Positions 4,774 through 39,086 are shown, counted from the first letter of the stretch. The stretch: 44,010 nt of DNA from Candidatus Omnitrophica bacterium CG1_02_40_15 (GCA_001871815.1 MNVP01000077.1:439-44448), one strand, 5' to 3'. Numbers and translations are program-made. The notes: generated by a model not told the origin, from the sequence alone.

Positions 4774-4832
4774 GGTTAAAGGTTTAAAGTGAAAGGTGTT
4801 TTCCTTAAACCTCACACCTTTAACCTTTCACC
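4774..4832. repeat. Heptamer-periodic hairpin, AGGT/ACCT type, copy a
   Basis: ggttaaa ggtttaa agtgaaa ggtgttt tccttaa acctcac accttta acctttc acc. The 17-mer ggtttaaagtgaaaggt recurs inverted at 36452-36468. Confidence 0.7.
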
Positions 4833-9852: not shown

Positions 9853-9893
9853 GAACAACTTTACACTTTAACAATGTTAGTTTGTAAAGTTGC
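9853..9893. repeat. Imperfect palindrome family CAACTTTACA..AACAATGTTA, copy b
   Basis: gaacaactttacactttaaca-at-gttagtttgtaaagttgct. Spans the glyQ stop (9877-9879) and the last glyQ codons. Lies upstream of the glyS ATG. Confidence 0.6.
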
Positions 9894-10740: not shown

Positions 10741-10743
10741 CTT

Positions 10744-10814
10744 TTAGCGTTTAGCGTATAGCGTTTAGCGTATAGTTTTTGTATCCGCTATACGCTCTAC
10801 GCTATGCGCTAAGC
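10744..10814. repeat. Heptamer-periodic hairpin, AGCG type
   Basis: agcgttt agcgtat agcgttt agcgtat agttttt gtatcc gctatac gctctac gctatgc gctaagc. About 27 bp of imperfect stem. Fills the recO-glyQ spacer. Confidence 0.75.
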
Positions 10815-12921: not shown

Positions 12922-13356
12922 TTATTCTAGGCCTTTAAGTAATTTTAATATTTCCTGTTCTTTCGCTTTCATCTTTTTTCTCGCCCTTGGCTTTTCGTCG
13001 CCATAACCTAATAAATGCAGGATGCCATGCACAAAGTAAAGGTTAAATTCCTCTTGAAAATTCTTTTTTCGCTTCTTGGCTTCCCTCTTAGCTGTTTCCA
13101 CGGATATCACTACATCTCCAAGTATAGAACCTGAAAGCCTTCTGGAGTCGCGCATGGGAAATGCCAGGACATCCGTAGCAAAATCCTTTTGCCTATATTT
13201 CCAATTCAGGTTCCTGATATACATGTCATTTACAAGAACCAGGCTCAACTCAGCGTCATCCTCAGCCATTGCTTTCAATGCATGCCTCGCACACTCTATT
13301 ATTTTATTTTTATCAATCTTTTCTATATTCTGTAAATTCTGTATGTCTATTTTCAT
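12922..13356 (-). CDS. ybeY: Endoribonuclease YbeY (rRNA maturation)
   Basis: 144 aa. Zinc motif HGILHLLGYGDE (H-x3-H-x5-H context). Sits in a PgpH-like/ybeY/dgkA neighbourhood. Confidence 0.9.
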   Translation of the reverse strand: MKIDIQNLQNIEKIDKNKIIECARHALKAMAEDDAELSLVLVNDMYIRNLNWKYRQKDFATDVLAFPMRDSRRLSGSILGDVVISVETAKREAKKRKKNFQEEFNLYFVHGILHLLGYGDEKPRARKKMKAKEQEILKLLKGLE

Positions 13357-13360
13357 ATAA

Positions 13361-13420
13361 CAGCTGTAAGCTTTAAGTTATAAGTTTTAAGCTTAAAGCT
13401 TATGGCTTATAACTTAAAAC
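13361..13420. repeat. Heptamer-periodic hairpin, AGCT type, copy a
   Basis: c agctgta agcttta agttata agtttta agcttaa agcttat ggcttat aacttaa aac. Fills the spacer between the PgpH-like gene and ybeY. Confidence 0.75.
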
Positions 13421-13428
13421 TAAATTTT

Positions 13429-15030
13429 TTATTTCTTTTTTCCTGTATCCTCGGGGTACTCGACACGGCTATGATAAGTACCAGTAAGGATATGCGTAAA
13501 AACCTCTGCTATTCTTTCGAGATCTTTAAGGGTTAATTCGCATTCGTCCAGTTGAGCGTCTATAAATTTATTATTTATAACTTTCTTCACAAGGCCTTGT
13601 ATACTAGAAAGCGTTGGATCATCGAGCGCGCGCGAAGCAGCCTCCACTGAATCAGCCAGAAGCACGCACGCAGCCTCCTTTGTCTGAGGCCTTGGGCCAG
13701 GGTATCTGAAACCCTCTTCGAACACTTCCTCATCCTCTGTCTTTTCAAGCGCCCTTTTAAAGAAATAAAAAACAAGGCCTGTGCCGTGATGCTGCCTTAT
13801 TATATCCACTATCTTTTTATTTAAACCATACCGCTCGGCCAGCTCAACGCCGTTTTTAACATGGTTGGTGATTATAAGGCTGCTCATTGTCGGAGAAAGT
13901 TTGTCGTGCATTGATCCGCCAGTCTGATTTTCGCTGAAATACTCTGCCTTCTCAATCTTTCCTATGTCATGAAAATATGCGCTCACGCGAGCCAGAAGAG
14001 CGTTTGCGCCTATTGTCTCGCACGCCGTCTCTGCAAGGTTCCCGACCACAAGGCTGTGATGATATGTGCCAGGCGCTTTTATAACCATTTCCTTTAAAAT
14101 AGGATGATTTAAATCAGCTATTTCCAGAAGGCTTATATTTGTGATTGTTTTAGATGCTATTTCAAAAATAGGCAAAACTCCTGTGACTATTATTGCTGAC
14201 ATCACTCCGTTGGCAAGCCCTATAAACGCCTCAATTATATAGGTGTGAAAATCCAATGAATTTATAAGGCCTATCCCTATAAAATATGCCATGTTGGCAA
14301 GCCCTACTACAAATCCTGCTGTTATAAGCTGCGATCTTCTTCTCGCATCTCTAACTGCAAAAATCCCAACCATTCCGCCCACAACAGATGCTGCCGCTAT
14401 ATCCAGCCTGCCTCCTGAAATCATGCCTATAATTATGCTTAAAAAACACGTGGTTATTATCGCCAGCCTGTTATTCAACAATAGCGCTATAAGCATTGAA
14501 GCAGCTGACGCAGGGATCAGACTGCTGGGCCAGGGAGATATTACAATAAACTTTGCCGCAATAGTCATAAGAATGCATATTGAAGCCAGAAGTATGAGTT
14601 CTTTATTGCCCACTATCAAATCAGGCTCATAGAATTCAATATAAATGACAAGGAGCAGCATGAATAAGGCTATTATTAAAGCAATGCCGAAAAATGCCAC
14701 TACTTTAAGCGGATACGGCTCGCGCTGTTCAATTGCTTCAAGTTTTGCCATGTGGCCTTTTGATACGCGCTCTCCTTTATTAAGTATCAACTCATTCTTC
14801 TTAACCTCTATTATATTATTTATGCCGTCCTTTATTTTAAAATCAAAAGGCGCGTATATTGATTTAAGCACTATGTCGCCTTCGTGGAATTCTGTCTTAA
14901 AGAGGCTGGTATCCCATTCCGCTGCTGCCACCATGATCAAACACGTAACAATAGCTATAAAAATATGGGGTATCTTATTATGAACTTCGTTAATCCTCTG
15001 CTTTTTATTTAGAGTTTTTTTCAGATGCAT
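13429..15030 (-). CDS. 7TM-HD membrane phosphohydrolase (PgpH/YqfF-like)
   Basis: Multi-TM central region followed by an HD domain (HSLVVGNLA...FHDIGK...HH). ATG 15030 is preceded by AAGGTGA. The track start at 15057 is a GTG inside the 15047-15074 hairpin. Confidence 0.82.
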   Translation of the reverse strand: MHLKKTLNKKQRINEVHNKIPHIFIAIVTCLIMVAAAEWDTSLFKTEFHEGDIVLKSIYAPFDFKIKDGINNIIEVKKNELILNKGERVSKGHMAKLEAIEQREPYPLKVVAFFGIALIIALFMLLLVIYIEFYEPDLIVGNKELILLASICILMTIAAKFIVISPWPSSLIPASAASMLIALLLNNRLAIITTCFLSIIIGMISGGRLDIAAASVVGGMVGIFAVRDARRRSQLITAGFVVGLANMAYFIGIGLINSLDFHTYIIEAFIGLANGVMSAIIVTGVLPIFEIASKTITNISLLEIADLNHPILKEMVIKAPGTYHHSLVVGNLAETACETIGANALLARVSAYFHDIGKIEKAEYFSENQTGGSMHDKLSPTMSSLIITNHVKNGVELAERYGLNKKIVDIIRQHHGTGLVFYFFKRALEKTEDEEVFEEGFRYPGPRPQTKEAACVLLADSVEAASRALDDPTLSSIQGLVKKVINNKFIDAQLDECELTLKDLERIAEVFTHILTGTYHSRVEYPEDTGKKK

Positions 15031-15046
15031 AGTCACCTTTGAATTT

Positions 15047-15074
15047 ACACCCGCCACAGAACTTTGGCGGGTGT
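15047..15074. other. GC-rich hairpin downstream of LysM gene
   Basis: acacccgcc-acagaacttt-ggcgggtgt, 9-bp stem. No U-tract on the minus strand. Confidence 0.5.
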
Positions 15075-17281: not shown

Positions 17282-18526
17282 TCAGCATAGTTCCGCGATT
17301 AAATTAACTAGTTCCACTTCTTTCTGGCTGCTGTTCTCCATATCCCTAATAACGACTCTTTTATTTTTGAACTCTTCCTCTCCAAGAATAACAACAAATT
17401 TAGCGCCCAGCTTTTCCGCCTTTCTCATCTGCGCTTTTAAACTTTTTGTATCATAATCTATTTCGCCTGAAATTCCAGCGTTACGCAGAGAATCTAATAA
17501 TTTAAATGCTTCATTATAAAGCATATCTCCCGCAATCGCCACAAAAACATCAACCCTTGAACTTTTAACCTTAAACTTTAAACCGTCACCGAGAGCCAGT
17601 ACCAACCTCTCCATCCCAAACGCAAATCCTATCGCGGGCGTATCTTTTCCTCCCAGCTCTTTGACCAGGTTATTATATCTTCCGCCTGCGCATATAGCGT
17701 CTTTTGCGCCAAGAGATTCCTGCGTTATTTCAAATACAGTCCTGGTGTAATAGTCAAGGCCCCTGACTATTTTATTATCCATTGTATATTCAACTCCTAT
17801 GGCGTTCAGGCCGACTTTAACTTTCTCAAAATGCTCGGCGCAATCGCTGCATAATGCGCTTTCAACCTTAACGTTCTGCGCAATAGCTTTACAGGAATCT
17901 TCTTTGCAATCAAATATCCTGAGCACATTTTTATCAAAGCGATTTTTGCAAGTCTCGCATAATTTTTCAAGATAAGGCCTGAAACTCTCTTTGTGTTTTT
18001 CCATAATTCTAATCTTATCTTTCTGGCAGCCCAGGCTGTTCAATTTTACATGAAATTTTTCAACGCCCAGTCGCTCGAGAAATCTGGCGCTAAGCGCAAT
18101 GACCTCTGCGTCAATAAACGGATTATCCGAACCTATCGCCTCAACCCCTATCTGATAAAACTGCCTCTGCCTGCCCTGCTGAGGCCTTTCGCTCCTGAAC
18201 ATCGGGCCTATATAAAATAATTTAGCAACCCCTCCGGCCTGAAACAAAGAGTTTTCTATATACGCGCGCGCAATAGAGGCTGTGGCCTCTGGCCTGAGAG
18301 CGATTATCCTGTTGCCTCTGTCAGAAAAAATATACATCTCTTTCTGGACAATATCAGTTGCATCGCCTATGCTTCTTATAAATAAAGACGCCTCTTCTAT
18401 TATAGGCGTCCTTATCTCTTTATATCCATATATATTAAATATATCCCTGCCAATAACTTCTATACGCTGCCATAAGCTTATTTCATCAGGCAGGATATCT
18501 TTTGTACCGCGGAGAGCTTTTATCAT
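17282..18526 (-). CDS. hisS: Histidine--tRNA ligase
   Basis: MIKALRGTKDILPDE... class II motifs (FRSERPQQGRQRQFYQ, GGGRYNNL). ATG 18526 is preceded by TAGGAG. The track start at 18556 is a TTG. Confidence 0.95.
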   Translation of the reverse strand: MIKALRGTKDILPDEISLWQRIEVIGRDIFNIYGYKEIRTPIIEEASLFIRSIGDATDIVQKEMYIFSDRGNRIIALRPEATASIARAYIENSLFQAGGVAKLFYIGPMFRSERPQQGRQRQFYQIGVEAIGSDNPFIDAEVIALSARFLERLGVEKFHVKLNSLGCQKDKIRIMEKHKESFRPYLEKLCETCKNRFDKNVLRIFDCKEDSCKAIAQNVKVESALCSDCAEHFEKVKVGLNAIGVEYTMDNKIVRGLDYYTRTVFEITQESLGAKDAICAGGRYNNLVKELGGKDTPAIGFAFGMERLVLALGDGLKFKVKSSRVDVFVAIAGDMLYNEAFKLLDSLRNAGISGEIDYDTKSLKAQMRKAEKLGAKFVVILGEEEFKNKRVVIRDMENSSQKEVELVNLIAELC

Positions 18527-18574
18527 ATAAACTCCTAAAACCGGCATCCGAAACAATCACTCACACCTCTTCTG

Positions 18575-19075: not shown

Positions 19076-21121
19076 TTAACAGATTTTCCGCAAAAATGAC
19101 CAGATTATGCTAAAACTGACTTGTTTACAGCTAGGAATCTTGGCATTCCACCTTGGCAAGATACAGGACGATTGGTAGTTAAGTTCGTAGGCCCTTTCAG
19201 ACTGAGATACTGTCTTGACGGGAAAATACCATATGTTTTCCGGCTTTTTAGAAAATGTAAAATCGATATCTAATTCCTTGCCTGAATCCTTTATTGAGAA
19301 TGAGCTAGTTTCGGAAACCGAACCTTTTTCATTGAGGTTGCTTAGGATCTTATCGCCCGTAGAATAATTATATCTGTCTGAATTTAAATAAGGCATTGTC
19401 AGGTTAAATTCCACTCCAAAAATCGCATCAATCGTGCCCTTGCTTAAATTTTTTAAACTATACTCGATTTCTATCTGCGACTTACCTTTTAATTTTATCC
19501 CCTTAATAATAGCTATAGTTTTACCGCCCACTTTGCCTTTTCTTGTAAGCGTAATCTTATCCAATTCTATTTTAGCTTTATAACTGGCATTTACAAAATC
19601 GCCAAGCTCTTCATATTTCAAATCTATAAAATCGTCTATTGTAACGTTTTCGGAAATAAAATGATCTACAAGGCACCCTTTTATATATTTATCGTACACA
19701 AATTTGTCTTTTAATCCAGGATCAACAGCCTTTATGTCTTCATGGATTGTGCGTACAACATTAGGATCGCTTGACTGGCCCATCTTTGCGAGTATTTTCT
19801 TATGATATTCCTCTTCATGCCTTGCAAGGCTATTAACCAGATTAATGGATAATGGTTTATAATCTAATTCTCTTATAATTCCGCCTCTTTGGGGATCGAT
19901 ATAAATTGAAAAATTATTGCTTTCAATAATAAAAGACTTGGTCTTATCTTTATATAAATCAACCTTTTTTATATCTTCCCAATCTTTTTTATCTTTATGC
20001 AGCATTTCGTCTGCTATTTTGTCAGCATTTATAAGATGTTCGTAAATCGCTTTTCTAAGATGGTAAAGATAAAGCCCGCCGAATACGCCGTGCCAGTAAG
20101 CGCAGTTGCACTGGCCTTTGTATAATTCGCGTAGAGCTAACTTTTTACGCTCTATGCTCCATGCTCCATGCTCTATGCCATTAATTTTTTCGCTCACATA
20201 ATGCATTTTACTCGCCATATGATTGGTTTCCGGGTATTTCTTAAGAAAATTCATCCAGGATCCGTGCGACCACTCCATCATCTCCTGGTATGACGCCTCT
20301 GGAATCTTTATTTTTTTTGTAGGGACAGAACAATGTTCTGTCCCTACAAGATAATCTGAGAACTTAATTGTTTCCAACCAGTCCTTATTCTTCATGAGCT
20401 CTTCAAAAAACTTATTAAGCCAGCCTTGTTTATAAACCCAATCATGAGTAAAAGGCCACTCCCCGAATTTTTCGGCATCATCGCCATATGTAAGTAGGGG
20501 GCGGTCATTGACCGCTCCTACTTGCTTGAAATAATTTATTAACTCATGAGGCATCTTAAAAGGTATCATATAACGAAGTTTTTTGCTGGAAGGGAATATA
20601 GCTATTTCCTTTCCTTTCTCTCCTGTTGTAAAATATCCAAACAGCTCATCTTCTTTTAAACCGGCCATTATAAAATGTTCATCATCCAGTATTGAATATT
20701 TCATGCCGGCCCTATTAAAATCTTTGCTGAGCTCAGGCGACCAGACCCTTTCAGGGGTCCACATGCCCTGAACTTTTTGCTTGAATCTTTTTTTAATATA
20801 CTCTGTCATCATCTTTATCTGGCCAGCTCTATCTTTCTCCGGTATGCTTATAAAAATAGGCTCGTAATACCCTCCGCCTATAATCTCCACCTGGCCTCTA
20901 TCTACCATCGCTTTAACCCTGTCTAAAAAATCAGGGTGATTGTCTTCGAAATAATCCAGAAGGCATCCGGAAAAATGAAACGCCATTTTTATATCTGGAT
21001 ATCTTTCGAATACGTCCAGGAAACTTTTGTAGCAATTTTGATAAGCCCTTTCTACAATGTTATCAAAATTACCTATAGGCTGGTGAAAATGTAGACACAT
21101 CCCAAAATATATTTTATTCAT
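19076..21121 (-). CDS. GH57 alpha-amylase / 4-alpha-glucanotransferase-type enzyme
   Basis: 681 aa. All five GH57 conserved regions are present: HFHQP, GQVEIIGGGYYEP, WTPERVW (Glu nucleophile), GDDAEKFG (Asp acid/base), CNCAYWHGVFGG. Confidence 0.88.
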   Translation of the reverse strand: MNKIYFGMCLHFHQPIGNFDNIVERAYQNCYKSFLDVFERYPDIKMAFHFSGCLLDYFEDNHPDFLDRVKAMVDRGQVEIIGGGYYEPIFISIPEKDRAGQIKMMTEYIKKRFKQKVQGMWTPERVWSPELSKDFNRAGMKYSILDDEHFIMAGLKEDELFGYFTTGEKGKEIAIFPSSKKLRYMIPFKMPHELINYFKQVGAVNDRPLLTYGDDAEKFGEWPFTHDWVYKQGWLNKFFEELMKNKDWLETIKFSDYLVGTEHCSVPTKKIKIPEASYQEMMEWSHGSWMNFLKKYPETNHMASKMHYVSEKINGIEHGAWSIERKKLALRELYKGQCNCAYWHGVFGGLYLYHLRKAIYEHLINADKIADEMLHKDKKDWEDIKKVDLYKDKTKSFIIESNNFSIYIDPQRGGIIRELDYKPLSINLVNSLARHEEEYHKKILAKMGQSSDPNVVRTIHEDIKAVDPGLKDKFVYDKYIKGCLVDHFISENVTIDDFIDLKYEELGDFVNASYKAKIELDKITLTRKGKVGGKTIAIIKGIKLKGKSQIEIEYSLKNLSKGTIDAIFGVEFNLTMPYLNSDRYNYSTGDKILSNLNEKGSVSETSSFSIKDSGKELDIDFTFSKKPENIWYFPVKTVSQSERAYELNYQSSCILPRWNAKIPSCKQVSFSIIWSFLRKIC
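20319..20347. repeat. REP-like palindrome, copy 5 (in frame inside GH57-681)
   Basis: gtagggacagaaca-a-tgttctgtccctac. Translated as VGTEHCSVPT. Differs from copy 3 by a compensated pair (C/G to A/T). Confidence 0.85.
20494..20521. repeat. REP-like palindrome, copy 6 (in frame inside GH57-681)
   Basis: gtagggggcggtcattgaccgctcctac. Translated as VGAVNDRPL, directly N-terminal to the GDDAEKFG catalytic region. Confidence 0.8.
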
Positions 21122-21259: not shown

Positions 21260-22690
21260 TCACAGGTTTTTATATAACTTCAGATATTGTTCTGCTGATG
21301 ATTCCCATGAATAATCGCAAGATACGCAGTTTTTAAGGAGCGTGTTCCAGAGTCTTTTATTCTTAAACACAGCCACTGCTTCTTTAATGGCGCTTAGAAA
21401 CGCCTCATTGGTAGCATCTTTAAATTTAAACCCATTCCCTTTTTTAGTAGCAGGATTGAAATTCTGAATCGTATCGTCCATGCCTCCTACGGCCCTTACT
21501 ACAGGAACTGTAGCATATTTAAGGCTATACATCTGGTTTAATCCGCACGGCTCATATCTGGAAGGCATTAAAAACATATCAGCGCCTGCTTCTATCTTAT
21601 GAGACAGCGCGTTATCAAATTTTATGCTCACGCCGACTTTGCCTTTATATTCTTTAGCCAGGCCCTGAAATATATTATTATATTTCTCATCGCCAAATCC
21701 AAGTATAACAAAATCGCTATCCTTTAAAATATCCTTCATTATATTTACAACCAGGTCTATGCCCTTTTGCTCTGCAAGCCTTGTTATCATAGCTATAATA
21801 GGCCTTTTGGCGCTATATTTTATTTCAAATGCCTTGGCCAGGTCTTTTTTGCATTCAATCTTGCCGCTAAGGTCATTTTCATCAAATTTTTTAGCTATAA
21901 ATTTATCATTAGCCGGGTTCCACACAGAATAATCCACCCCGTTTATTATTCCATAAAGATTTTTTTCTTTTACCCTTAATAACCCATCCAAACCGCATCC
22001 AAACTCAGGAGTAAGTATTTCCCTGCTATAGCCTTTACTCACAGTGCTTATAGCGTCCGAAAAAACTATACCTGATTTCATAAAACTCAATTTATCCCAG
22101 AATTCAACTCCGGATGTGGTAAATAAATCCCAGGAAATATCCAAATACGGCACTACATCTTTAACGAAAAGCCCCTGGTAAACCATGTTATGTATTGTAA
22201 AAAGAATCTTTGTCTTATTGAACATGGCGTCATTCTGATGATGGGTTTTAATATATAGAGGCACTAGGCCTGACTGCCAGTCATTACAATGCAATACATC
22301 CTGCTTGCCTATATAAGGTATGGATGCCAGTATTGCTTTTGCGTAAAAACTAAACCTGAATGCATTATCCTGATAATCTGCTTGAGGCGTGCCGTATAAA
22401 AATTCCCTGTCATAATATTCATTTTTCTCTATAAAATATACATCCACTCCATTATGCTTTAACAAAAGAAGATTAAAAAGCTCTTCTCTATTATTTATCC
22501 TTAAAGATATATTCTTTTTAAACACAGCCGGCTTAAAGCCGTTTTTCTTGACTAACTGATAATAAGGAAGAATAGCGCTCGCCTTATGGCCTTTTCTAGC
22601 GATTGCTTCAGGCAAAGCTCCCGCTACGTCTGCCAGCCCGCCTGTTTTAGCAAAAGGAAAAACCTCCGGGGAAACAAATAAAATATTCAT
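21260..22690 (-). CDS. glgA: Glycogen synthase (GT5, GlgA-type)
   Basis: 476 aa. N-terminus MNILFVSPEVFPFAKTGGLADVAGALP carries the KTGGL motif. C-terminal PSRYEPCGLNQM. Confidence 0.92.
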   Translation of the reverse strand: MNILFVSPEVFPFAKTGGLADVAGALPEAIARKGHKASAILPYYQLVKKNGFKPAVFKKNISLRINNREELFNLLLLKHNGVDVYFIEKNEYYDREFLYGTPQADYQDNAFRFSFYAKAILASIPYIGKQDVLHCNDWQSGLVPLYIKTHHQNDAMFNKTKILFTIHNMVYQGLFVKDVVPYLDISWDLFTTSGVEFWDKLSFMKSGIVFSDAISTVSKGYSREILTPEFGCGLDGLLRVKEKNLYGIINGVDYSVWNPANDKFIAKKFDENDLSGKIECKKDLAKAFEIKYSAKRPIIAMITRLAEQKGIDLVVNIMKDILKDSDFVILGFGDEKYNNIFQGLAKEYKGKVGVSIKFDNALSHKIEAGADMFLMPSRYEPCGLNQMYSLKYATVPVVRAVGGMDDTIQNFNPATKKGNGFKFKDATNEAFLSAIKEAVAVFKNKRLWNTLLKNCVSCDYSWESSAEQYLKLYKNL

Positions 22691-22708: not shown

Positions 22709-22775
22709 AGCTGTAAGTTTTAAGCTGTAAGCTATAAGTTTTTCTTACAGCTTATGGCTTATAGCTTAAAGCTGT
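22709..22775. repeat. Heptamer-periodic hairpin, AGCT type, copy b
   Basis: agctgta agtttta agctgta agctata agttttt cttac agcttat ggcttat agcttaa agctgt. Fills the spacer between the GH57 (403 aa) gene and glgA. Confidence 0.78.
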
Positions 22776-22789
22776 CTTTTTATTGAGTT

Positions 22790-24001
22790 TTAAGTTAATA
22801 TCTCGTCTCTAATCTTCCCCGCAATATACCTTGCCGCAATCACTTTTTTGTAGAGCTTTTTCTTTTCGGAATCTCTGCAGCCTGAACTGGCTACTGCAAG
22901 ATATGCGTTCAATATTGCTTCTTCCTGTAAAATAAGGCCTTTATTTATAAGATTTTCGTTCCACATCTTGCCTTTATTAGCCCACCAGAACTGGCAGCTG
23001 TGTAAAGCCATATCCAATGTCTCACGGCCTGTATTAAAAAAGGCTTCGCTTTTTTCACTATCTTTTTTATTCTGCGCCTGTTGTAATATTTCAAAACATA
23101 TATCTATATGCTCCCATTGCAATCTATGAATATTATTATGAGGCGTATTCCATAATGGATAATAATTTCCTGCCATGATTTCTTCGTTAGTGGTGCTCCA
23201 GGAAGAAGGTTTAGGAGGCTTTGTCTTTACTGAAGGAAACCTTTCCAGTAGATAACTGATATTTACCGCCTTTATATCGTCAGAATCCTTTATAATCTCA
23301 TAAAGAGCTGCCAGAAATATATTTTCCCAGCCATGTATATGATGGCCAAATGTCTCCGCGTCCATTGCTGTTACTATATAACTATCTTCTTTTCCCTTAG
23401 CAAGCTCTTTAATCCTTGATGCAAATCCCATGGCATCAATATTCTTAAAACTGACCATATTGCTGATTATATCGTCTCTGAAAAATGTCTTCATGGAGGC
23501 TGAGCCGAGTTTAAAAGTTGGCGCATAATCCATAGGCCATTTACCCTGGCATGCAATACCACTCACTATAACCCATTCATAACCCATGCCTCTTACAATA
23601 GAGGCTGTTTCATCAGAGTAACACATCTCTGGCAGAAAAAATCCTTTTGGCCTATAACTATCTTTAAAAAAATAGAGGTTTGTCTCTTTATTTAATTCTA
23701 TCTGACGCCTGGCTTCTTTTTTAGGTATCAAAGGCAGTATTGCGTGGAATTTTGCAGATTCAACAAACTCAACCTGGCCTCGCTCTCCAAGCTCTCTGAG
23801 GCCCGTTACAATATCCCCATAACCATGGATACTCAGCATTTCAGTAAGCACCCCGCACATATTTACAGTAACTCTGGATTCAGGATGCTCTTCAAATACC
23901 TTTACTAACGGCCTATAGGATTCTTCGCAAATCTTTCTAAGGACATTATGGGACTGCGTCGGAGGCTGGTAAAAATGTAGAAGCGGCGCCCAGTATATCA
24001 T
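22790..24001 (-). CDS. GH57-family glycoside hydrolase (403-aa paralogue)
   Basis: HFYQPP, GQVEFVES, FLPEMCY, MDAETFGHH and HSCQFWW correspond to GH57 regions I-V, with Glu and Asp retained. Confidence 0.8.
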   Translation of the reverse strand: MIYWAPLLHFYQPPTQSHNVLRKICEESYRPLVKVFEEHPESRVTVNMCGVLTEMLSIHGYGDIVTGLRELGERGQVEFVESAKFHAILPLIPKKEARRQIELNKETNLYFFKDSYRPKGFFLPEMCYSDETASIVRGMGYEWVIVSGIACQGKWPMDYAPTFKLGSASMKTFFRDDIISNMVSFKNIDAMGFASRIKELAKGKEDSYIVTAMDAETFGHHIHGWENIFLAALYEIIKDSDDIKAVNISYLLERFPSVKTKPPKPSSWSTTNEEIMAGNYYPLWNTPHNNIHRLQWEHIDICFEILQQAQNKKDSEKSEAFFNTGRETLDMALHSCQFWWANKGKMWNENLINKGLILQEEAILNAYLAVASSGCRDSEKKKLYKKVIAARYIAGKIRDEILT

Positions 24002-27463: not shown

Positions 27464-28708
27464 TTATTTTGGAACTGTATTGCGCTCGACTTTTGTTGTT
27501 ATTCTCTTTGTTTCTACTTTATCATTCGAAGTTGCAGTAAAAGGCAGATCTATTTTCCCATCAGGAAGCGCAAGCCTCATGCTGAAAGTTCCGTCCGGCC
27601 TGAGATCTACTTTTTTATCCCCAAGCCTCACCTCTGCATCAGGCTCTGTGCGGCCATAAACAATAAGTTCTGCCCCTATTTCAAAAAAGAATTTGCGTTT
27701 TTTATCCGGCTGGATAAATTCGCTTGCGCCGCCTTGAAGATTTTCGCTTCCACCTAGATATGTAAATTCAGAGGCGCCAATCATAACTTTCCTGCCAAAT
27801 TTAGCTCCTTCGAGCCTCTTAAAATAAAGCAGGCCTTTCCATTCGCTTTCTGACATCCTGGAATACAAATATTTATATATGCGTTTTCTGGAAATACGCG
27901 AAAATAACCTATTTCTTAATAAAGGAGAAAATTTACTGTAATACGCTCTTAAATCTGCCTGGCTAAGATAAATCTTTCTTCTTCTGGATACAGTAGGGAA
28001 CGGCCGCGGCCGTTCCCTACTAAACCTGCCTGCTGTATCATATTGAACAGCGTTTTCGCCTCTATTGAATGTAGGGGACGGCCGCGACCGTCCCCTACCT
28101 GCTTTTTCAATAGCAATCTCATCGCTAATATCCATCCATATCTCTTCAAATCTGTTTGACGAACTGGAGCGGGGGGTATGCACAAAGTTAGACCTGGCCA
28201 TTGGAAAAAATCTTCCGGAAGTATGGACTATGCCTATCTCTCCGCAATACGACACATTGTCATTCCAAAGGCTTATATACCAATTATTGGAATAACGGCC
28301 TACTTCTATATCAAACCAATGATTGGCATTAAAACCATTAAAATCTTTATATGTTATATCATACATGCGCACGATAAATTTGGCGCCGTCCAGGTTGCCG
28401 CCCAATTGTTTCTTCACATTTTCTATTGAACTCTCGGCAATTTCCCAGTAAGCGTATATCCAGAAAGGATCCTTTGGTATCAACGTAATCCTTGTTATAG
28501 TATCGTAAGAAGGAAGTTCGTATTCATTTATCGTTATATTTGGCGCGCTTTTATATTCTTTTATTGCGCAGGATGGCTCTATCACGGCAACAGAAAGCTT
28601 TCTACGGACTGCTTTTCTTTTTACAGCCTTTACAATAGCCTCTCTTCCATCTTTATAAATGCGCTCTATGGAATTTCTTTTTTTAATTTTTGGTTTTTTA
28701 ACGGCCAT
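27464..28708 (-). CDS. DUF4912-like protein of unknown function
   Basis: 414 aa. The block ITLIPKDPFWIYAYWEI...IVRMYDIT resembles DUF4912. A basic, probably disordered middle carries two REP-like insertions. C-terminal beta-rich region. Confidence 0.65.
   Translation of the reverse strand: MAVKKPKIKKRNSIERIYKDGREAIVKAVKRKAVRRKLSVAVIEPSCAIKEYKSAPNITINEYELPSYDTITRITLIPKDPFWIYAYWEIAESSIENVKKQLGGNLDGAKFIVRMYDITYKDFNGFNANHWFDIEVGRYSNNWYISLWNDNVSYCGEIGIVHTSGRFFPMARSNFVHTPRSSSSNRFEEIWMDISDEIAIEKAGRGRSRPSPTFNRGENAVQYDTAGRFSRERPRPFPTVSRRRKIYLSQADLRAYYSKFSPLLRNRLFSRISRKRIYKYLYSRMSESEWKGLLYFKRLEGAKFGRKVMIGASEFTYLGGSENLQGGASEFIQPDKKRKFFFEIGAELIVYGRTEPDAEVRLGDKKVDLRPDGTFSMRLALPDGKIDLPFTATSNDKVETKRITTKVERNTVPK
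27993..28020. repeat. REP-like palindrome, copy 9 (in frame inside DUF4912 gene)
   Basis: gtagggaacggccgcggccgttccctac, perfect. Translated as RERPRPFPT. Confidence 0.85.
28071..28098. repeat. REP-like palindrome, copy 10 (in frame inside DUF4912 gene)
   Basis: gtaggggacggccgcgaccgtcccctac. Translated as RGRSRPSPT. Confidence 0.85.
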
Positions 28709-29858
28709 AAATGTCCAGTACCTGGTCAGCTACAACATCCCATGAAAAAGCGGTTTCAACTGCGATCCTGCCGTTAGCGCCCATCCATCTGGCGTGGTCA
28801 AAATCTGAAAATGCAGCGCCTATGCCCCATGCTATTGATTCAGGATTTGGATAAACCTTTAAACCTGTTATGTCATGCCATATTATTTCTCCTGGCCCGC
28901 CGTTTGAAGTAGCTATCACAGGTTTTCCAGCGCTCCATGCTTCTAATAAAACTATCCCAAAAGGTTCGTTTCTCGAAGGTATACACACAACGTCTGTTGC
29001 CTTGTAAAGATCAGAAAGCTTCCATCCATTATTAAAGCCTATAAACCTTGTAGCGTGATGAACACCAATCTCTTTTGCCCTATCCTCCACGCCCCAGCGC
29101 ATCTCTCCGTCTCCCACAAAAACAAACTTTGCGTTATTGTAATATTTAAGTATGTGCGGGATAGCCTCTATTAAAAGGTCCGGGCCTTTTTGATAAACAA
29201 TCCTGCCGACAAAAAGCGCCATTGGGTCCATTGGCCCTATTCCATAATAACGCCGGACTGCTCCAGCGTCTATCCACCCGTCAAAATTTCTGTAATTGAC
29301 TCCATTATATACTACGTCCGCTTTCCAATCAGGCACATTATACATCCACTGTATTTCCCCTTTAAGGGCCCGGGATACAGCTATTACATGGTCAGCGCAG
29401 TATGTGCCATGCCTTTCATGGTCCCTTATCCTGGCGGAATTGCCATTATGAAAATTATTCCCGCACCTGCCATATTCAGTTGAGTGCATGGTAAGAACAG
29501 CCTTGCTTGGCCTGGCCTGTTTTATCCAAACCATTGCGTTTGAGGTCAGCCAGTCATGGCTATGAATCACGTCAAAAGGGCCCGTGACGCTTTCTGTCTG
29601 GAAAAATGCATCCACAAAAGAGCGGCACATATTATTTATTTCTTCTACAAAATCCGGGCTCTGGTGAAAATGGCACCTATGATAATGCACACCGTCAATG
29701 CGTTCATACCATGCCTGATTGGGGTTACCAGCTCGCGTAAAAACATGGACCTCATTGCCCTTGCGCTCAAGGCCGCATGCAAGTTCTGTAACATGCACGC
29801 CTACCCCGCCCACGCAAATAGAATGCATGGATTCCCACGAAAATATGGCTATCCGCAT
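28698..29858 (-). CDS. GT4-family glycosyltransferase, glycogen-synthase-like
   Basis: 386 aa. MRIAIFSWESMHSICVGGVGVHVTEL... N-terminus. C-terminal PSRNEPFGIVLLEAWSAGKPV (E-x7-E context). 11-nt overlap with the DUF4912 gene. Confidence 0.8.
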   Translation of the reverse strand: MRIAIFSWESMHSICVGGVGVHVTELACGLERKGNEVHVFTRAGNPNQAWYERIDGVHYHRCHFHQSPDFVEEINNMCRSFVDAFFQTESVTGPFDVIHSHDWLTSNAMVWIKQARPSKAVLTMHSTEYGRCGNNFHNGNSARIRDHERHGTYCADHVIAVSRALKGEIQWMYNVPDWKADVVYNGVNYRNFDGWIDAGAVRRYYGIGPMDPMALFVGRIVYQKGPDLLIEAIPHILKYYNNAKFVFVGDGEMRWGVEDRAKEIGVHHATRFIGFNNGWKLSDLYKATDVVCIPSRNEPFGIVLLEAWSAGKPVIATSNGGPGEIIWHDITGLKVYPNPESIAWGIGAAFSDFDHARWMGANGRIAVETAFSWDVVADQVLDIYGR

Positions 29859-29865
29859 ATTTTTT

Positions 29866-29933
29866 CAGCTTTAAGCTATAAGCTTTAAGCTATAAGCTTT
29901 TTCTTACAGCTTACAGCTTAAAACTTACAGCTG
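29866..29933. repeat. Heptamer-periodic hairpin, AGCT type, copy c
   Basis: c agcttta agctata agcttta agctata agctttt tcttac agcttac agcttaa aacttac agctg. Fills the CBM48-GT4 spacer. Confidence 0.8.
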
Positions 29934-29943
29934 AATTTGTGTT

Positions 29944-30219
29944 TTATAATTCTATTACTGAATTTTCTGAGCCGAAAGTGTTTACTGTGAAAAGATTATT
30001 TAAAGGGTCTCTCTGCCATTGGCCGTCAATCAAATATTTATACTCATAACGTCCAGGATTAAGAGTCAAATCTCTTGCCCATACTCCATCTTTAGATTTC
30101 TTAAGACTGCTGCTGGACGCATCCCATGAATTGAAATCTCCTGCCAGGCGCACATCATTTGCAGTTGGCGCGCTTATCTTAAAAACCACCCTTTTTTTTG
30201 AACATTTCTTAATAGCCAT
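29944..30219 (-). CDS. Stand-alone CBM48 / AMPK-beta-like glycogen-binding domain protein
   Basis: 91 aa. VVFKISAPTANDVRLAGDFNSWD...KDGVWARDLTLNPGRYEYKYLIDGQWQRDPLN is the CBM48 pattern. SD AGGAGGGGG upstream. Confidence 0.78.
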   Translation of the reverse strand: MAIKKCSKKRVVFKISAPTANDVRLAGDFNSWDASSSSLKKSKDGVWARDLTLNPGRYEYKYLIDGQWQRDPLNNLFTVNTFGSENSVIEL

Positions 30220-35374: not shown

Positions 35375-36379
35375 TTACTTTGTTGCGCACGCTTCTCTTA
35401 AGCACTTACCAGTTATTTCAGGCGATGTAGGATTTATATAGAGGCCTGAACCCCATTCAAAACCAGCTATATTTGTCAATTTAGGCATTATCTCAAGATG
35501 CCAGTGAAATTCTTCATAAACCCCGTCTCTAATAGGCGCAGTGTGAATTATAAAATTATACGCCGGGTCATTTAGCCTTGATTTCAACCTCGCAAGGATT
35601 TCTTTTAATGCGCCTGCCATATCATAAATCGCGGAATCATCTATTGATTTAAATTCAGGACTATGAGATTTTGGCAATAACCATACCTCGAATGGAAAGC
35701 GAGACACAAAAGGGCAAAATGCGATAAAATATTTATTTTCAAATACTATCCTCTCCTTTTCCTGCTGCTCCTGAGCCAGCATATCGCAGAAAACGCATCT
35801 CTCCCTGTATTTAAAATAATTCTGGGCGCCTTTTAGCTCTTCTTTAACCCTCTTTGGCACAATCGGTAGTGCCACAAGCTGAGTATGCGAATGTTCAAGC
35901 GACGCGCCCGCAGATTCCCCGTGATTTTTAAAAAGTAAAATATACCTGAATCTTGTGTCATTTTCCAGATCTATGGTCCTGGATTTATACTTTAATATTA
36001 CATTCCTTATCTCATCCTGCGTCAGGTCAGATAAGTTTTTATAATGATCTGGATTTTCAATTATTACCTCGTGCGCGCCAATACCATTTGACATGTCATA
36101 CATACCTATGCCGCGCTTGTCCAATTCGCCCTCTATCTTTAATGCAGGAAATTTATTAGAAACAACTCTGACTGTCCAGCCTGAGGTGTCGGGCTTTGTC
36201 TTAGAGTCTCTAATAACCTCTATCTCAGGAGGCGTCATCTTTTCGTTTCCCGGACAAAAAGGACATGTTCCGCCTTTTTTAGTCTGCGGCTTTATATCAA
36301 ATTCATCGCATCTTTTTGGATGCGAGACAGCTATTTCCACCCATCTTCCTGTTACTGGATCGCGTCTTAATTGAGACAT
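35375..36379 (-). CDS. GalT-like HIT-family nucleotidyltransferase (hexose-1-P uridylyltransferase / NDP-glucose phosphorylase type), catalytic motif intact
   Basis: MSQLRRDPVTGRWVEI..., zinc knuckle CPFCPGNE, GAHEVIIE, active-site HSHTQ (H-x-H-x-Q) at 35879-35893. ATG 36379 chosen. Confidence 0.85.
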   Translation of the reverse strand: MSQLRRDPVTGRWVEIAVSHPKRCDEFDIKPQTKKGGTCPFCPGNEKMTPPEIEVIRDSKTKPDTSGWTVRVVSNKFPALKIEGELDKRGIGMYDMSNGIGAHEVIIENPDHYKNLSDLTQDEIRNVILKYKSRTIDLENDTRFRYILLFKNHGESAGASLEHSHTQLVALPIVPKRVKEELKGAQNYFKYRERCVFCDMLAQEQQEKERIVFENKYFIAFCPFVSRFPFEVWLLPKSHSPEFKSIDDSAIYDMAGALKEILARLKSRLNDPAYNFIIHTAPIRDGVYEEFHWHLEIMPKLTNIAGFEWGSGLYINPTSPEITGKCLREACATK

Positions 36380-36408
36380 GTTATAATCCTTTGAAAAAAA
36401 TATTTGTC

Positions 36409-36475
36409 GGTGAAAAGTTAAAGGTTGAAGGTTTAGAACAAAAAATCTTATACCTTTCACTTTAAACCTTTCACC
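36409..36475. repeat. Heptamer-periodic hairpin, AGGT/ACCT type, copy b
   Basis: ggtgaaa agttaaa ggttgaa ggtttag aacaaaaaatcttat acctttc actttaa acctttc acc. Lies between the two GalT-like genes. Confidence 0.72.
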
Positions 36476-36492
36476 AAATTATATACTAATCT

Positions 36493-37521
36493 TTATATGC
36501 TGACCTCTTGTAAATATTTCGTCGCTTCTTCCGGAGGAGTAGGATTTATATAAAATCCTGAACCCCACTCAAAACCAGCCACCTGAGTAACTCTAGGCAT
36601 AACCTCTATATGCCAGTGATAATCTTCTTCTATTGTATGCCAGTAACCTGGCCTCTTTGTCCGCCTGAAAGGGGCTGTATGCAGCATATAATTATACGGC
36701 GGATCATTCAATACCCTTGAAAGCTTGGCAAATACTGTCTTTAAAACATTTGCCAGATCTTTTATTTCATCACCCTGTATATTCATAAAATCTGTCCTGT
36801 GGATTTTAGGCATTATCCATATCTCAAAAGGAAACCTTGAGGCAAAAGGCGCGATTGCCACAATGGTTTTTGTCTCCATTATGATCCTTGCGCCTGTTTC
36901 TATTTCCTGGCGTATAATGTCGCAGAAAATACACCTTTCTTTATATTCGAAATAAAACATGGAACCCCTGAGTTCCTCTTTGACTCTTGTAGGCGTAACA
37001 GGCGTTGCGATAAGCTGAGACCTCATGTGTTTTGTTTTGCGGCTGCCGCCTGCCTTTAACCCATGATTCTTAAATAAAAGGCAATATTTAAAACGAATGT
37101 CTTTTTCGAGTTCGCTGATGCGGTAGATAGAAGCATTAATTACATCTTGTATTTCAAGCTCTGATAACTGATATATATCAGTAAGGTGATTAGGGGACTC
37201 TACCAGCACTTCATGGGCGCCTATATTGTTCATAACATCATACATCCCGACTCCGCGCCTCTCAAGCTCCCCTTCTATCTTGAATTTCGGAGCTATGCTG
37301 GGAACAACCCTCACGCTCCAACCTGGAGTATCTTTTTTTGTGCCTGGTTTTCTTATTGCAAATATTTCCGTAGGCGTCTTCTTCTCATGGCCTTCGCAAA
37401 AAGGGCATTCCATCTCAGGCTCATCCGCATGCTTGATATTAAAATCGTTCGGCCTTTTAGCCCTCTCAGTAGATATTATAACCCATCTTCCTATTACAGG
37501 ATCTCGTCTTAATTCTGGCAT
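36493..37521 (-). CDS. GalT-like HIT-family paralogue with the nucleophilic His replaced (H-M-R-S-Q)
   Basis: MPELRRDPVIGRWVII..., CPFCEGHE, GAHEVLVE. The active-site position reads KHMRSQ (codons 37015-37029; Arg167 = AGG at 37021-23) where the paralogue has HSHTQ. Confidence 0.8.
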   Translation of the reverse strand: MPELRRDPVIGRWVIISTERAKRPNDFNIKHADEPEMECPFCEGHEKKTPTEIFAIRKPGTKKDTPGWSVRVVPSIAPKFKIEGELERRGVGMYDVMNNIGAHEVLVESPNHLTDIYQLSELEIQDVINASIYRISELEKDIRFKYCLLFKNHGLKAGGSRKTKHMRSQLIATPVTPTRVKEELRGSMFYFEYKERCIFCDIIRQEIETGARIIMETKTIVAIAPFASRFPFEIWIMPKIHRTDFMNIQGDEIKDLANVLKTVFAKLSRVLNDPPYNYMLHTAPFRRTKRPGYWHTIEEDYHWHIEVMPRVTQVAGFEWGSGFYINPTPPEEATKYLQEVSI

Positions 37522-37536
37522 ATGGGATGAATTATA

Positions 37537-38496
37537 TCATAAAAAATTATCCACGCAAGGAAAATTTTTGTGCCCAACTATAAATTCTTTCGTAGTCATT
37601 CTTCGCGAACCCTCTAATTGAAGCTCTTCTATTTTTAAAGCCCCTTTTCCTGTTTTAACCAGTATGCCATTTTTATTAATTTCCAATATGGCGCCGGGCT
37701 CACTTTTGGCCCACCTGTCAGGTGAACCAGATGGCTCATCTGACAGGTGGACAGGTATTGCCTTATATATTTTAAGTATTTTTTTATCCAAATGCGTAAA
37801 ACACCCCGGCCATGGCGCAAAAGCCCTGATTCTATTGCAAATTTCATCAGCGCTATTAGCCCAGTTAATCAGGCCATCTTCTTTTTTTAATTTAGGCGCA
37901 TAAGTTGCCTTATTATGATCCTGCACTATAAATTTAACCTCATTGTCCCTTATTAACCTTATGGCATCCAATAAAATATTTGCGCCTTTTATGGAAAGTT
38001 TTTCCGATAATGTAACAGCATTATCCTGTTCACTTACAGGCAATATTTTTTTAAGAATGACATCCCCTTCATCCAGTTTTTCATTCATGCGCATAATGGT
38101 TACGCCTGTCTCTTTTTCTCCGTTCGCAATAGCCCAGTTTATAGGGGCTGCCCCTCTATATTTTGGTAGAAGCGAGGCATGGATATTCAGGCAATATAAT
38201 TTTGGTAAACTCAATACTGGTTTCGAAAGCATCTGGCCAAAGCTTACTACGATAAATAAATCCGCGTTAAACTTTTTCAGGAATTCTATGGATTCCTTAG
38301 AATTTACTTTGACAGGTTGAAATATCTTAATCCCGAGTTCTCCGGCTTTTAATTTTACCGCTGTAGGCGCTATTTTAAGAGACCTGCCCTTTTGCCTGTC
38401 TGGCTGTGTAATAACCAGAACAATATTCTCGTTCTTAGCAAGTTCCCCTAATATAGGTACAGCAAAATTTGAGCTGCCGAAAAATACTATTTTCAT
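37537..38496 (-). CDS. fmt: Methionyl-tRNA formyltransferase
   Basis: 319 aa. MKIVFFGSSNFAVPIL..., NIHASLLPKYRGAAPINWAI (SLLP motif). Follows def. Confidence 0.95.
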   Translation of the reverse strand: MKIVFFGSSNFAVPILGELAKNENIVLVITQPDRQKGRSLKIAPTAVKLKAGELGIKIFQPVKVNSKESIEFLKKFNADLFIVVSFGQMLSKPVLSLPKLYCLNIHASLLPKYRGAAPINWAIANGEKETGVTIMRMNEKLDEGDVILKKILPVSEQDNAVTLSEKLSIKGANILLDAIRLIRDNEVKFIVQDHNKATYAPKLKKEDGLINWANSADEICNRIRAFAPWPGCFTHLDKKILKIYKAIPVHLSDEPSGSPDRWAKSEPGAILEINKNGILVKTGKGALKIEELQLEGSRRMTTKEFIVGHKNFPCVDNFL

Positions 38497-38501
38497 AATT
38501 T

Positions 38502-38580
38502 AGCTATAAGTTATAAGCTTTAAGTTTTAAGCATTTAACATCCATAAATCTTACAGCTTATAGCTTAAAGCTTACAGCTG
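38502..38580. repeat. Heptamer-periodic hairpin, AGCT type, copy d
   Basis: agctata agttata agcttta agtttta agcattt aacatcc ataaatc ttac agcttat agcttaa agcttac agctg. Fills the def-fmt spacer. Confidence 0.78.
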
Positions 38581-38582
38581 TA

Positions 38583-39086
38583 TTACAACTCCATGCAGAC
38601 CTTTGCGCCAAACTGCTTGATAATCTTCTTGCGCCTCAAGAATCCAATTCTATCTATAAAAAGTATTCCGTCCAGATGATCCGTTTCGTGCTGTATTATC
38701 CTGGCAAGAAGGCCTTCTGCGTTTATCTTAAACATATCTCCGTCAAGATTAAGCGCCTCTACTGTAATAAACTCAGGCCTTACAACATCGCTGGAAACGC
38801 CTGGCAAACTCAAACAGCCTTCGCAAAACTTTACCTTTCCTTTTTTCTGGGTTATCTTAGGATTAATTAAGGTCAGGGCAATCTTATTGTCTCCAACCAT
38901 ATCTTCTACGACTATAATGCGCTTACTAATGCCTACCTGAGGAGCTGCCAGGCCAACCCCACTAGCAGAGCGCATTGTCTCTATCATATCATAAGCGAGC
39001 TTGCGCTCATCATTGCCTGCTTTTTCCGCCTGCCTGGCTTTTTTCCGCAACACCGGATCTGGATATATTTTTATTTCTAATAGCAT
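38583..39086 (-). CDS. def: Peptide deformylase
   Basis: 167 aa. GVGLAAPQVG, EGCLSLPG and HETDHLDG are the three deformylase motifs. Confidence 0.96.
   Translation of the reverse strand: MLLEIKIYPDPVLRKKARQAEKAGNDERKLAYDMIETMRSASGVGLAAPQVGISKRIIVVEDMVGDNKIALTLINPKITQKKGKVKFCEGCLSLPGVSSDVVRPEFITVEALNLDGDMFKINAEGLLARIIQHETDHLDGILFIDRIGFLRRKKIIKQFGAKVCMEL

Follow-up and report, generated by a model that had tools for sequence, protein, structure and literature searches.

Heptamer-armed hairpins at gene junctions of a Candidatus Omnitrophota genome: likely gene-less counterparts of PF05635 intervening-sequence cassettes

Protein-coding intervening sequences (IVSs) of 23S rRNA, with an S23p / PF05635 open reading frame (ORF), are known from Coxiella burnetii, Leptospira and other bacteria. 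The Coxiella IVS is 428 nt long, with a 28-bp terminal stem and an S23p ORF; it holds three tandem GACAGAT heptamers plus a degenerate one, their number varying among strains, and the stem is cleaved by RNase III at the first of these repeats (PMC4990558). IVSs are sporadic in distribution and thought to be horizontally transferred, and ORFs of the 23S_rRNA_IVP family are also found in rRNA insertions of bacteria of the Candidate Phyla Radiation (bioRxiv 10.1101/2024.02.27.582315). In this study, we have explored a 44,010-nt stretch of DNA from Candidatus Omnitrophica bacterium CG1_02_40_15 (GCA_001871815.1, MNVP01000077.1:439-44448; hereafter the window, G000:C69:439-44448 in our numbering of the source assembly, G000, and its contigs), in which seven hairpins with arms of tandem heptamers lie between genes, the focal one at 29866..29933 between a CBM48-domain gene and a GT4 glycosyltransferase gene. 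We consider it likely that these hairpins are gene-less palindromic counterparts, comparable to miniature inverted-repeat transposable elements (MITEs), of IVS-type cassettes encoding a PF05635 protein.

The source assembly has 1.17 Mb in 92 contigs, is ~80% complete and has 40% G+C. The relatives of the window's fmt gene are all metagenome-assembled genomes (MAGs) of Candidatus Omnitrophota, and a cyanobacterial origin (as host of HIP1 or of the cyanobacterial heptamer repeats described below) was rejected on this ground and because GCGATCGC was found once. Our comparisons cover 41 related genomes, including 12 congeners, which were searched by pattern only, and a cross-phylum set of MAGs; gene calls are longest-ORF heuristics.

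The likeness to 23S IVSs is closest for a full-length copy elsewhere in the source assembly, which has terminal inverted repeats, a long stem and a PF05635 gene. The Coxiella IVS also shares the tandem heptamers in its arm, and arms of the same GACAGNN type border PF05635 genes of related Omnitrophota. The window elements differ in that they are gene-less, lie between or inside protein genes, number about 100 copies per genome and belong to several word families; they are found at protein-gene junctions instead of as an insertion in helix 25 or 45 of 23S rRNA, and the assembly is without a 23S rRNA gene. With no ORF in their loops, the window copies are at best gene-less derivatives of an IVS-type cassette and not full members.

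A second group of known systems consists of dispersed heptamer repeats. In Xanthomonas campestris and X. axonopodis, ~185 GGGAATC heptamer arrays have been described (Rehm et al. 2015, PMC4692102), and each genome has 70-75 pairs in inverted, convergent arrangement; 89-93% of these arrays are intergenic, mostly with co-directional flanks and near the end of the upstream gene, without conservation of these positions from one species to the other. They resemble the present elements in their tandem heptamers of ~4 units and in inverted pairs able to form stem-loops, and differ in a G-rich word that was studied as a quadruplex former; the paper draws no link to a cassette (PMC4692102). The short tandemly repeated repetitive (STRR) sequences of heterocystous cyanobacteria, as reported from Mazel et al. 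1990 in PMC4692102, are likewise dispersed intergenic heptamers with several word families per genome and a patchy distribution. The TAACTGA repeats of Beggiatoaceae are also dispersed intergenic tandem heptamers whose patchy spread suggests horizontal transfer, but they are almost all direct repeats (1 inverted case in 170) lying just upstream of start codons (PMC4679880). For STRR and TAACTGA repeats, both papers leave function and origin unexplained (PMC4692102, PMC4679880). None of the words of the source assembly (TAAGCTN, TAGCGNN, AAAGGTN, ACGAACG and AAAAGTN) is the same as GGGAATC or as those of STRR1-3.

All seven window elements (Table 1) are true hairpins with arms of tandem 7-mers, far above chance. 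Tandem Repeats Finder reports arrays of period 7 (and 14) at 10743-10811, 13362-13418, 22709-22773, 29867-29932 (the focal element, with period-7 calls at 29867-29898 and 29903-29932) and 38502-38579, and an array of period 14 at 36448-36474. The lag-7 identity of the arms is 0.57-0.81 (0.73/0.57 at 4774..4832), whereas mononucleotide shuffles average 0.24-0.32 and reach 0.50-0.68 at most, and the free energy (dG) of sense-strand folding is between -21 and -36 kcal/mol, z being -4.4 to -9.8 versus shuffles (focal element, dG -36.4, z = -9.8; 4774..4832, dG -22.7, z = -5.9). The terminal inverted repeats can form long stems of ~25-35 bp, the loops of 1-20 nt contain no ORF, and the flanking ORFs are co-directional, on the minus strand, at 7/7 sites. 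A sequence-only reading of this stretch had claimed heptamer-armed hairpins at seven spacers, with a 7-nt periodicity that an autocorrelation against shuffled controls should reveal, and both claims are borne out by the array calls, the lag-7 identities and the folding. The same reading denied that these are canonical terminators, rightly as far as our scans go: no sense-strand U-tract follows the stem at the seven sites (the 8 nt that come after it contain no more than 4 T), and neither the terminator scan nor the promoter scan made a call at any of them. No Rfam family matches any element, the sole match in the window being a tRNA.

Table 1. Coordinates of the hairpins and related features (window positions unless a contig is given; the upstream gene of each junction is named first).
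Feature	Coordinates	Strand	Context
Focal A-family hairpin (AGCTNTA / TAAGCTN)	29866..29933	.	CBM48-domain gene (29944-30219, -) / GT4 glycosyltransferase gene (28698-29858, -)
A-family hairpin	22709..22775	.	GH57 gene (22790-24001, -) / glgA (21260-22690, -)
A-family hairpin, 79 nt, 19-nt loop	38502..38580	.	def (38583-39086, -) / fmt (37537-38496, -)
A-family short palindromic variant, arms meet at AAGCTT	13361..13420	.	7TM-HD gene (13429-15057, -) / ybeY (12922-13356, -)
B-family hairpin (TAGCGNN)	10744..10814	.	ORFs 10825-11469 (-) / 9877-10740 (-)
C-family hairpin (AAAGGTN)	4774..4832	.	ORFs 4847-7567 (-) / 3927-4748 (-)
C-family hairpin	36409..36475	.	342-aa ORF (36493-37521, -) / next gene (about 35375-36400, -)
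Single C-type heptamer arm in frame	17552..17584	-	ORF 17282-18556, peptide LKFKVKSSRV
Full PF05635 cassette	G000:C68:28695-29116		ORF of 118 aa at C68:28737-29093; PF05635 match at C68:28752-29066
ValRS gene with heptamer inserts	G000:C32:3324-6203		outside the window
Y1 (RAYT-type) genes	G000:C3:73-654 and C63:2353-2892		own REP families ACTGTGCTCAAGACCAGGTCTTGAGCACAGT and GTAGGGACAGCACAATGTGCTGTCCCTAC

The window is a sample of a genome-wide population. In the source genome we counted 117 runs of period 7. The counts for periods 5, 6 and 8-12 are 1-7, and sequence simulated with an order-3 Markov model has 2. In the 1.17 Mb, 100-123 heptamer loci were found, in at least four word families. 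Family A is TAAGCTN (the AGCTNTA of the sequence-only reading), B is TAGCGNN and C is AAAGGTN; the three alphabets proposed by that reading are all correct, but the list was incomplete, as there are also family D (ACGAACG), which is abundant and mostly inside genes, and family E (AAAAGTN), whose arrays enclose some of the short A palindromes as outer arms. Arm polarity is fixed: the stop-containing, purine-rich array is the 5' arm in 55 hairpins (on either strand) and the reverse holds in 1. At the intergenic hairpins, the gap on the side of the stop codon has a median of 3 nt and that on the side of the start codon a median of 10 nt, and in 10/19 B copies the TAG of the first unit is itself the stop of the upstream gene. 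Co-directional flanks are seen at 49/52 intergenic hairpins against a background of 86% of all gene pairs, so that the co-directional context is mildly informative and the tight junction fit is the stronger feature. The genome-wide scan of heptamer-periodic inverted repeats relative to stops and starts, which had been suggested as a check, thus yields ~100 loci whose placement is non-random. Every unit of the A, B and C 5' arms contains a stop triplet, while D arms and the Xanthomonas GGGAATC arrays have none; for this reason we set aside the idea that the arms exist to provide stops in three frames, and take stop content as a filter on word survival.

Several arrays of the genome combine or lie apart from these families. 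In the window, an array of (GCTCCAT)x4.3 at 20149-20178, inside ORF 19076-21121, is outside the main families. Composites at G000:C10:14591-14700, C50:3900-4060, C71:14791-14930 and C40:9750-9880 consist of a short A palindrome nested in AAAAGTN / NACTTTT arms, and the congener G008 (L236) also has an A-type palindrome within outer arms of the E word. The window element 13361..13420 belongs to a 'loop -13' subgroup, members of which have outer AAAAGTN arms elsewhere in the genome. The E word also borders the PF05635 genes of congeners G002 and G008.

Evidence for our reading comes from the PF05635 cassette (Table 1). The sole match in the source assembly to PF05635 (23S_rRNA_IVP/S23p, Avd-like; E = 3e-40) is in a gene bracketed by TAAGYTN x4 and its complement. 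This cassette fills a stop/start junction as the hairpins do, running from the upstream TAG through CTATAAGTTTTAAGCTGTAAGTTATAAGCTA, the gene and AAGCTTAAAGCTTAAAGCTTATAACTTAAAGCTGAAAA to the ATG of the next gene. Its left arm is identical to an A hairpin at 32/34 positions, and its right arm is identical to the sense-strand 3' arm of the focal element at 38/40. The association extends to relatives and to other phyla, in which PF05635 genes are for the most part enclosed by inverted heptamer arrays. PF05635 genes are present in 22 of the 41 related genomes, and a strict test finds lag-7 arrays on both flanks at 15/28 of the PF05635 loci in relatives; at the rest of these loci arrays are seen by eye in most, some with units of 6, 8 or 9 nt. 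In the cross-phylum set, 16/37 homologues have such arrays on both flanks, and the background among all genes of the source assembly is 1.8%. The PF05635 loci of relatives each have an arm word of their own (CGTGAAT, ACGAGAT, GACAGNN, GTGTCAA, AAAAGKC, GGTTAAG, TAAGTTG and others), with the GACAGNN type bordering the genes of G017, G020 and G033, a B-like right arm following the gene in a Nitrospira MAG, and C-like arms at the loci of G036 and G016. A PF05635 match is lacking in 10/12 congeners, including all eight without any A or B match. We have found no paper that links PF05635 cassettes to dispersed heptamer hairpins.

Within the cross-phylum set of 37, A-type arms on both sides accompany 14/16 homologues with at least 57% identity to the protein of the source assembly and 0/21 of the more distant ones. 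The two exceptions carry the neighbouring word AAGTGGT/CAGTGGT which, together with an intermediate locus (L304), suggests a gradual drift of the word. The clade of the PF05635 protein tracks the arm word. The protein of the source assembly matches PDB 2gsc (X. campestris XCC0516, E = 2e-16), which has been used as a representative PF05635 structure and for which homology with Avd, the accessory protein of diversity-generating retroelements, has been described (PMC10053308). The X. campestris S23p structure of Lin et al. 2006 is a homopentameric toroid of four-helix bundles, according to its summary in PMC4990558. The PF05635 product may be the protein that reads the 7-nt register, and three features make it a candidate: its clade follows the word, the units are conserved one by one without compensation between arms, and there are 4-5 units per arm for a pentamer.

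This proposal borders on an alternative in which the tandem heptads, in direct and inverted order, are DNA-level binding arrays: a small, oligomeric DNA-binding protein would occupy them as repeated operators or as sites resembling a centromere. A precedent is found in plasmid pSM19035, whose omega repressor binds 7-bp heptads. Recognition by a protein, unit by unit, would predict what we observe in the arms, which draw on the same restricted set of unit variants, each on its own 5'-3' strand, with no arm-to-arm co-variation for pairing, and it would also suit the tracking of the word by the PF05635 clade. As a regulon of the host, it would have to accommodate ~100 sites with at least four words in 1.2 Mb, copies in coding regions and absence from orthologous junctions, and we regard it as improbable; it overlaps with our preferred explanation if the binder is the cassette's own PF05635 product.

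The exact placement between stop and start, the stability of the stems (z = -4 to -10) and their density in operons, where successive junctions are occupied on C87, C70 and C40, would also suit RNA structures selected by the host, namely intercistronic stem-loops for upstream stability, for translation coupling or uncoupling, or for designed processing. Yet the closest relatives have nothing inserted at the junctions that we compared. The def-fmt junction, which holds the 79-nt A element in the window, reads TAATATG in L004, L006 and L007 and contains unrelated GTTGACA-type hairpins in L001, L002, L003, L005 and L011, and the junction orthologous to 36409..36475 is an overlapping TAATG in L001, L006 and L007. 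The focal CBM48/GT4 junction reads TAAAAGGGGAGCATG in G005 (94% protein identity), is similarly empty in G007 and G008, and is occupied by a GTTxACA hairpin in G011, G009, G003, G006 and G010 and by another palindrome in G004; among the congeners compared, the A element is present there in the source genome only. The GH57/glgA junction is without a heptamer hairpin in G005, G001, G009, G002 and others, and different elements occupy it in G008, G007, G012, G006 and G004. These comparisons show the elements to be insertions tolerated at stop/start junctions, to which permissive loops of proteins are to be added for the arrays within genes. The 'transcript punctuation' suggested by the sequence-only reading is hard to hold as a host design when the corresponding junctions are empty or carry unrelated hairpins in the nearest congeners, whose proteins at the GT4 junction are 88-94% identical. 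Of the two observations that were to speak against that reading, absence from the syntenic spacers of relatives is what we find, whereas random placement with respect to genes is not.

Two further observations concern these junctions. Congeners without heptamer hairpins carry a non-heptamer family, GTTGACA/GTTTACA ... TGTCAAC/TGTAAAC, at identical stop/start junctions, and the presence of unrelated palindromes at identical sites implies that the junctions are recurrent landing sites for palindromic elements. In G005, G007 and G008 the GT4 gene has a clear Shine-Dalgarno (SD) sequence (GGGGAG / AGGGAA) directly past the upstream stop codon; at 29858-29944 of the window, the hairpin and an A-rich linker, AAAAAAT, replace that stretch and no SD is left.

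Neither folding nor orientation favours the sense strand, which speaks against host-selected RNA structures. Folding is more stable on the sense strand for 30 elements and on the antisense strand for 18 (Wilcoxon p = 0.36), and the B copies that could be oriented are divided 6:7 between sense and antisense, in agreement with the caution of the sequence-only reading that an RNA-level role in the sense transcript was not established. We see no sense-strand G:U asymmetry: variant units are symmetric on each arm's own strand, so that a wobble on one strand is cancelled on the other. The variable positions are uncompensated, and chimeric hairpins with arms swapped between copies fold better than the native elements, probably as a result of the conserved asymmetric mismatches of the master copies and of the two copy orientations, and not of selection against pairing. 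An SD (4-mer) is found beside 16/49 hairpins, equal to the genome background of 30%; bridging of an SD by the folded hairpin was considered and dropped, as it fits 4/49 cases and SD use is low genome-wide. With identical arrays also present in coding regions, we give host selection of these RNA structures little chance of being the explanation.

Identical heptamer words are found inside at least 18 different genes of the source assembly. D arrays lie in coding regions in 17/18 cases, in the orientation that reads as the hydrophilic peptide RTTNDER (the opposite strand would give RSSFVVR), and C arrays in genes read KGLRFKV. An insert of tandem 7-mers gives a peptide with a period of seven residues, and the words or variants that persist within genes are limited to those without a stop. 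The ValRS (valyl-tRNA synthetase) gene has two ACGAACG arrays and one TAGCG arm; its inserts RTTNDERRTTN and ITNDERQTTND are both absent in G005, and the second site is without an insert in G011 and G002 and holds another repeat-derived peptide, KSKVKSQKSK, in G008, which fits AAAAGTN units. These D and C arrays within genes, as distinct from the seven intergenic sites, resemble the Rickettsia palindromic elements (RPE), selfish palindromes that lie in frame within protein-coding genes, in being in-frame insertions in conserved proteins such as ValRS, with congeners lacking the insert or having a different one; they differ from RPE in being made of tandem 7-mers. Some D arrays are joined to a short palindrome (GTCCCGAGCGAAGTCGAGGG / CCCTCGGCTTCGCTCGGGAC), as at G000:C48:11233-11300 and 14466-14530, C52:4640-4710 and C32:3960-4016, and the recurrence of one composite in several genes suggests the nesting of different small elements.

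The copies of each word family go back to one imperfect master. In oriented alignments of short-loop copies, the B master reads TTAGCG-TAG-AGCG-xxT-AGCG-TTT-AGCG-TAT-AG / TTTTTC / TATCCGC-TATACGC-TCTACGC-TATCCGC-TAA and the A master reads ..AGCTGTAAGTTATAAG / TTTTTC / TTACAGCTTACGGCTTATAACTTAAAGCTGA; the loop is common to the copies, indels are of whole 7-nt units, and the mismatches between arms recur in most copies. The window element 10744..10814 aligns to the B master (TTAGCG..TATAG-TTTTT-(C/G)TATCCGC..CGCTAA), which is common to 14 short-loop copies. The C copies compared, which lie elsewhere in the genome than 4774..4832, have conserved termini, TGTTGGT...ACCAACA. The sequence-only reading had thought simple descent from one repeat less likely, which fails within families, given the conserved master with its common loop, termini and mismatches; its wider argument, that one architecture in several alphabets points to a common origin or mechanism and not to chance, stands.

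These alignments also bear on the view that the arrays are independent simple-sequence repeats (SSRs), in which slippage favours 7-nt units, arrays arise in place and inverted pairs form by local duplication, with no mobile element involved. Heptamers are reported to be the most over-represented class of long SSRs in many bacteria, with slippage offered as the explanation (summaries in PMC4679880 and PMC4692102); copies here do differ by whole 7-nt units, and TAGCGNN arrays that are long and perfect are seen in Vibrio, Acinetobacter and Methylotuvimicrobium. Against this view, dozens of unrelated junctions have words, unit variants, loops and terminal sequences in common, mismatches between the arms are conserved across copies, identical words recur within genes, families are common to distant genomes yet missing in congeners, and the arms match those of a gene-bearing cassette. 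Slippage probably accounts for the change in unit number and not for the origin of the elements; as the sole explanation it is largely refuted, and we judge independent SSRs to be quite improbable.

Other mobile palindromes offer a partial likeness. Repetitive extragenic palindromic (REP) sequences and the bacterial interspersed mosaic elements (BIMEs) they form, Correia elements and MITEs of the enterobacterial repetitive intergenic consensus (ERIC) type are also short, imperfect intergenic palindromes, co-transcribed in operons and present in either orientation, with tens to hundreds of copies in a genome. The heptamer elements differ from them in having an internal 7-nt periodicity in the arms and no association with REP-associated tyrosine transposases (RAYTs), and their gene-bearing partner encodes a four-helix-bundle protein and not a transposase. 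Of the features of a MITE derived from an insertion sequence, we note that the sole gene-bearing partner found encodes PF05635, not a known transposase, and that one junction is TA-compatible. That the hairpins are REP or REPIN elements mobilised by the genome's own Y1 (RAYT) transposases is very improbable even with Y1_Tnp genes in 37/41 related genomes, two of them in a source assembly rich in REP-type palindromes, since both of these genes are bordered by different REPs of their own (ACTGTGCTCAAGACC.. and GTAGGGACAG..) and by no heptamer arrays, A- or B-type arrays flank 0/14 RAYT loci in A- or B-rich genomes (six relatives), and the heptamer elements are 60-100 nt long with no common RAYT-REP 5' tetranucleotide in their conserved termini. 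REPs of the second type (GTAGGGACAGCACAATGTGCTGTCCCTAC) are also found inside the window, for example at 20312-20354.

Returning to the hairpins as gene-less counterparts of PF05635 cassettes, the model that we favour is the following. The element consists of two inverted arrays of 3-6 tandem heptamers, small and non-coding, and the full cassette has the same inverted arrays around a gene for a PF05635 (23S_rRNA_IVP / S23p, Avd-like) four-helix-bundle protein of ~120 aa. The short hairpins probably derive from full cassettes via gene loss; the opposite direction, with the PF05635 gene landing in hairpin loops, is also possible. The 7-nt register would reflect recognition by the cassette's own protein or by the mobilising machinery, and unit number would shift by slippage. 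Once co-transcribed, copies would be expected to fold into 25-35-bp stems, potential substrates of RNase III like those of the 23S IVSs, and an RNase III gene is present in the source assembly. Polycistronic mRNA could then be punctuated or destabilised as a side effect of RNase III cuts and not by host design.

Several points weigh against this model. We know of no nuclease or recombinase activity for PF05635 proteins, which leaves mobility unexplained by anything in the cassette. The def-fmt junction is compatible with a TA duplication, and there is no clean target-site duplication at the junctions compared. No PF05635 gene with B-, C- or D-type arms is found in the 80%-complete source assembly, so that the link is direct for the A family only. 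Two genomes (G018 and G024, 81-90% complete) have A or B hairpins and no PF05635 match, and several others have PF05635 genes and no A or B words, these being the words scanned. RNase III probably cleaves the hairpins in mRNA, which is argued only by analogy with the 23S IVSs. Finally, occurrences in other phyla come from MAG bins, some of them short contigs, in which mis-binning is possible.

The spread of the words is patchy. The B word is abundant in the source genome (89 matches), G022, G024, G030 and G039 and was not found in 10/12 congeners, and the A word, equally patchy, is distributed otherwise, with G000, G017, G018 and a few more genomes. Genomes from further families of the class also have hairpins of the B architecture, each genome with a unit-variant profile of its own, and TAGCGNN arrays occur in many phyla, with an inverted partner array downstream in 27/127 of those sampled. 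B-type hairpins almost identical to those of the source genome are present in MAG contigs of Elusimicrobia/Endomicrobiales, and B-type single arms in Atribacteria contigs. In cultured bacteria of several phyla, long, near-perfect TAGCGNN-type arrays (up to >20 units) open at or just past a stop codon, as in L124 (Vibrio), L147 (Acinetobacter), L142 (Methylotuvimicrobium), L117 (Bacteroidia), L136/L172 (Mesorhizobium) and L126 (Pseudaminobacter); those of L117, L126 and L136 open with a common TGAGCGA.TAGCGA junction, and the rhizobial arrays L126 and L136 have an inverted partner array.

A broader hypothesis would be that of a mobile class spanning phyla, built as array, gene for a PF05635 pentamer and inverted array, in which the protein reads its own units, each clade has its own words, and mobility or maintenance proceeds without a canonical transposase. 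We hold this to be possible but doubtful. If true, the cyanobacterial STRR, the heptamer repeats of Xanthomonas and the IVSs of 23S rRNA would be one phenomenon.

In conclusion, dispersed heptamer repeats (STRR since 1990, then those of Xanthomonas and Beggiatoaceae) have been catalogued without an origin or a function, and the present elements may offer an explanation. The S23p-bearing IVSs of 23S rRNA have likewise been called selfish without a mechanism, and the heptamer arms tie both puzzles together in one genome. For the annotation of streamlined uncultured bacteria, the consequence is that ~100 elements reshape the operon junctions of a genome: they supply stop codons, displace ribosome-binding sites and add peptides to essential proteins such as ValRS. 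If their stems are substrates of RNase III, they would also fragment polycistronic mRNAs genome-wide.

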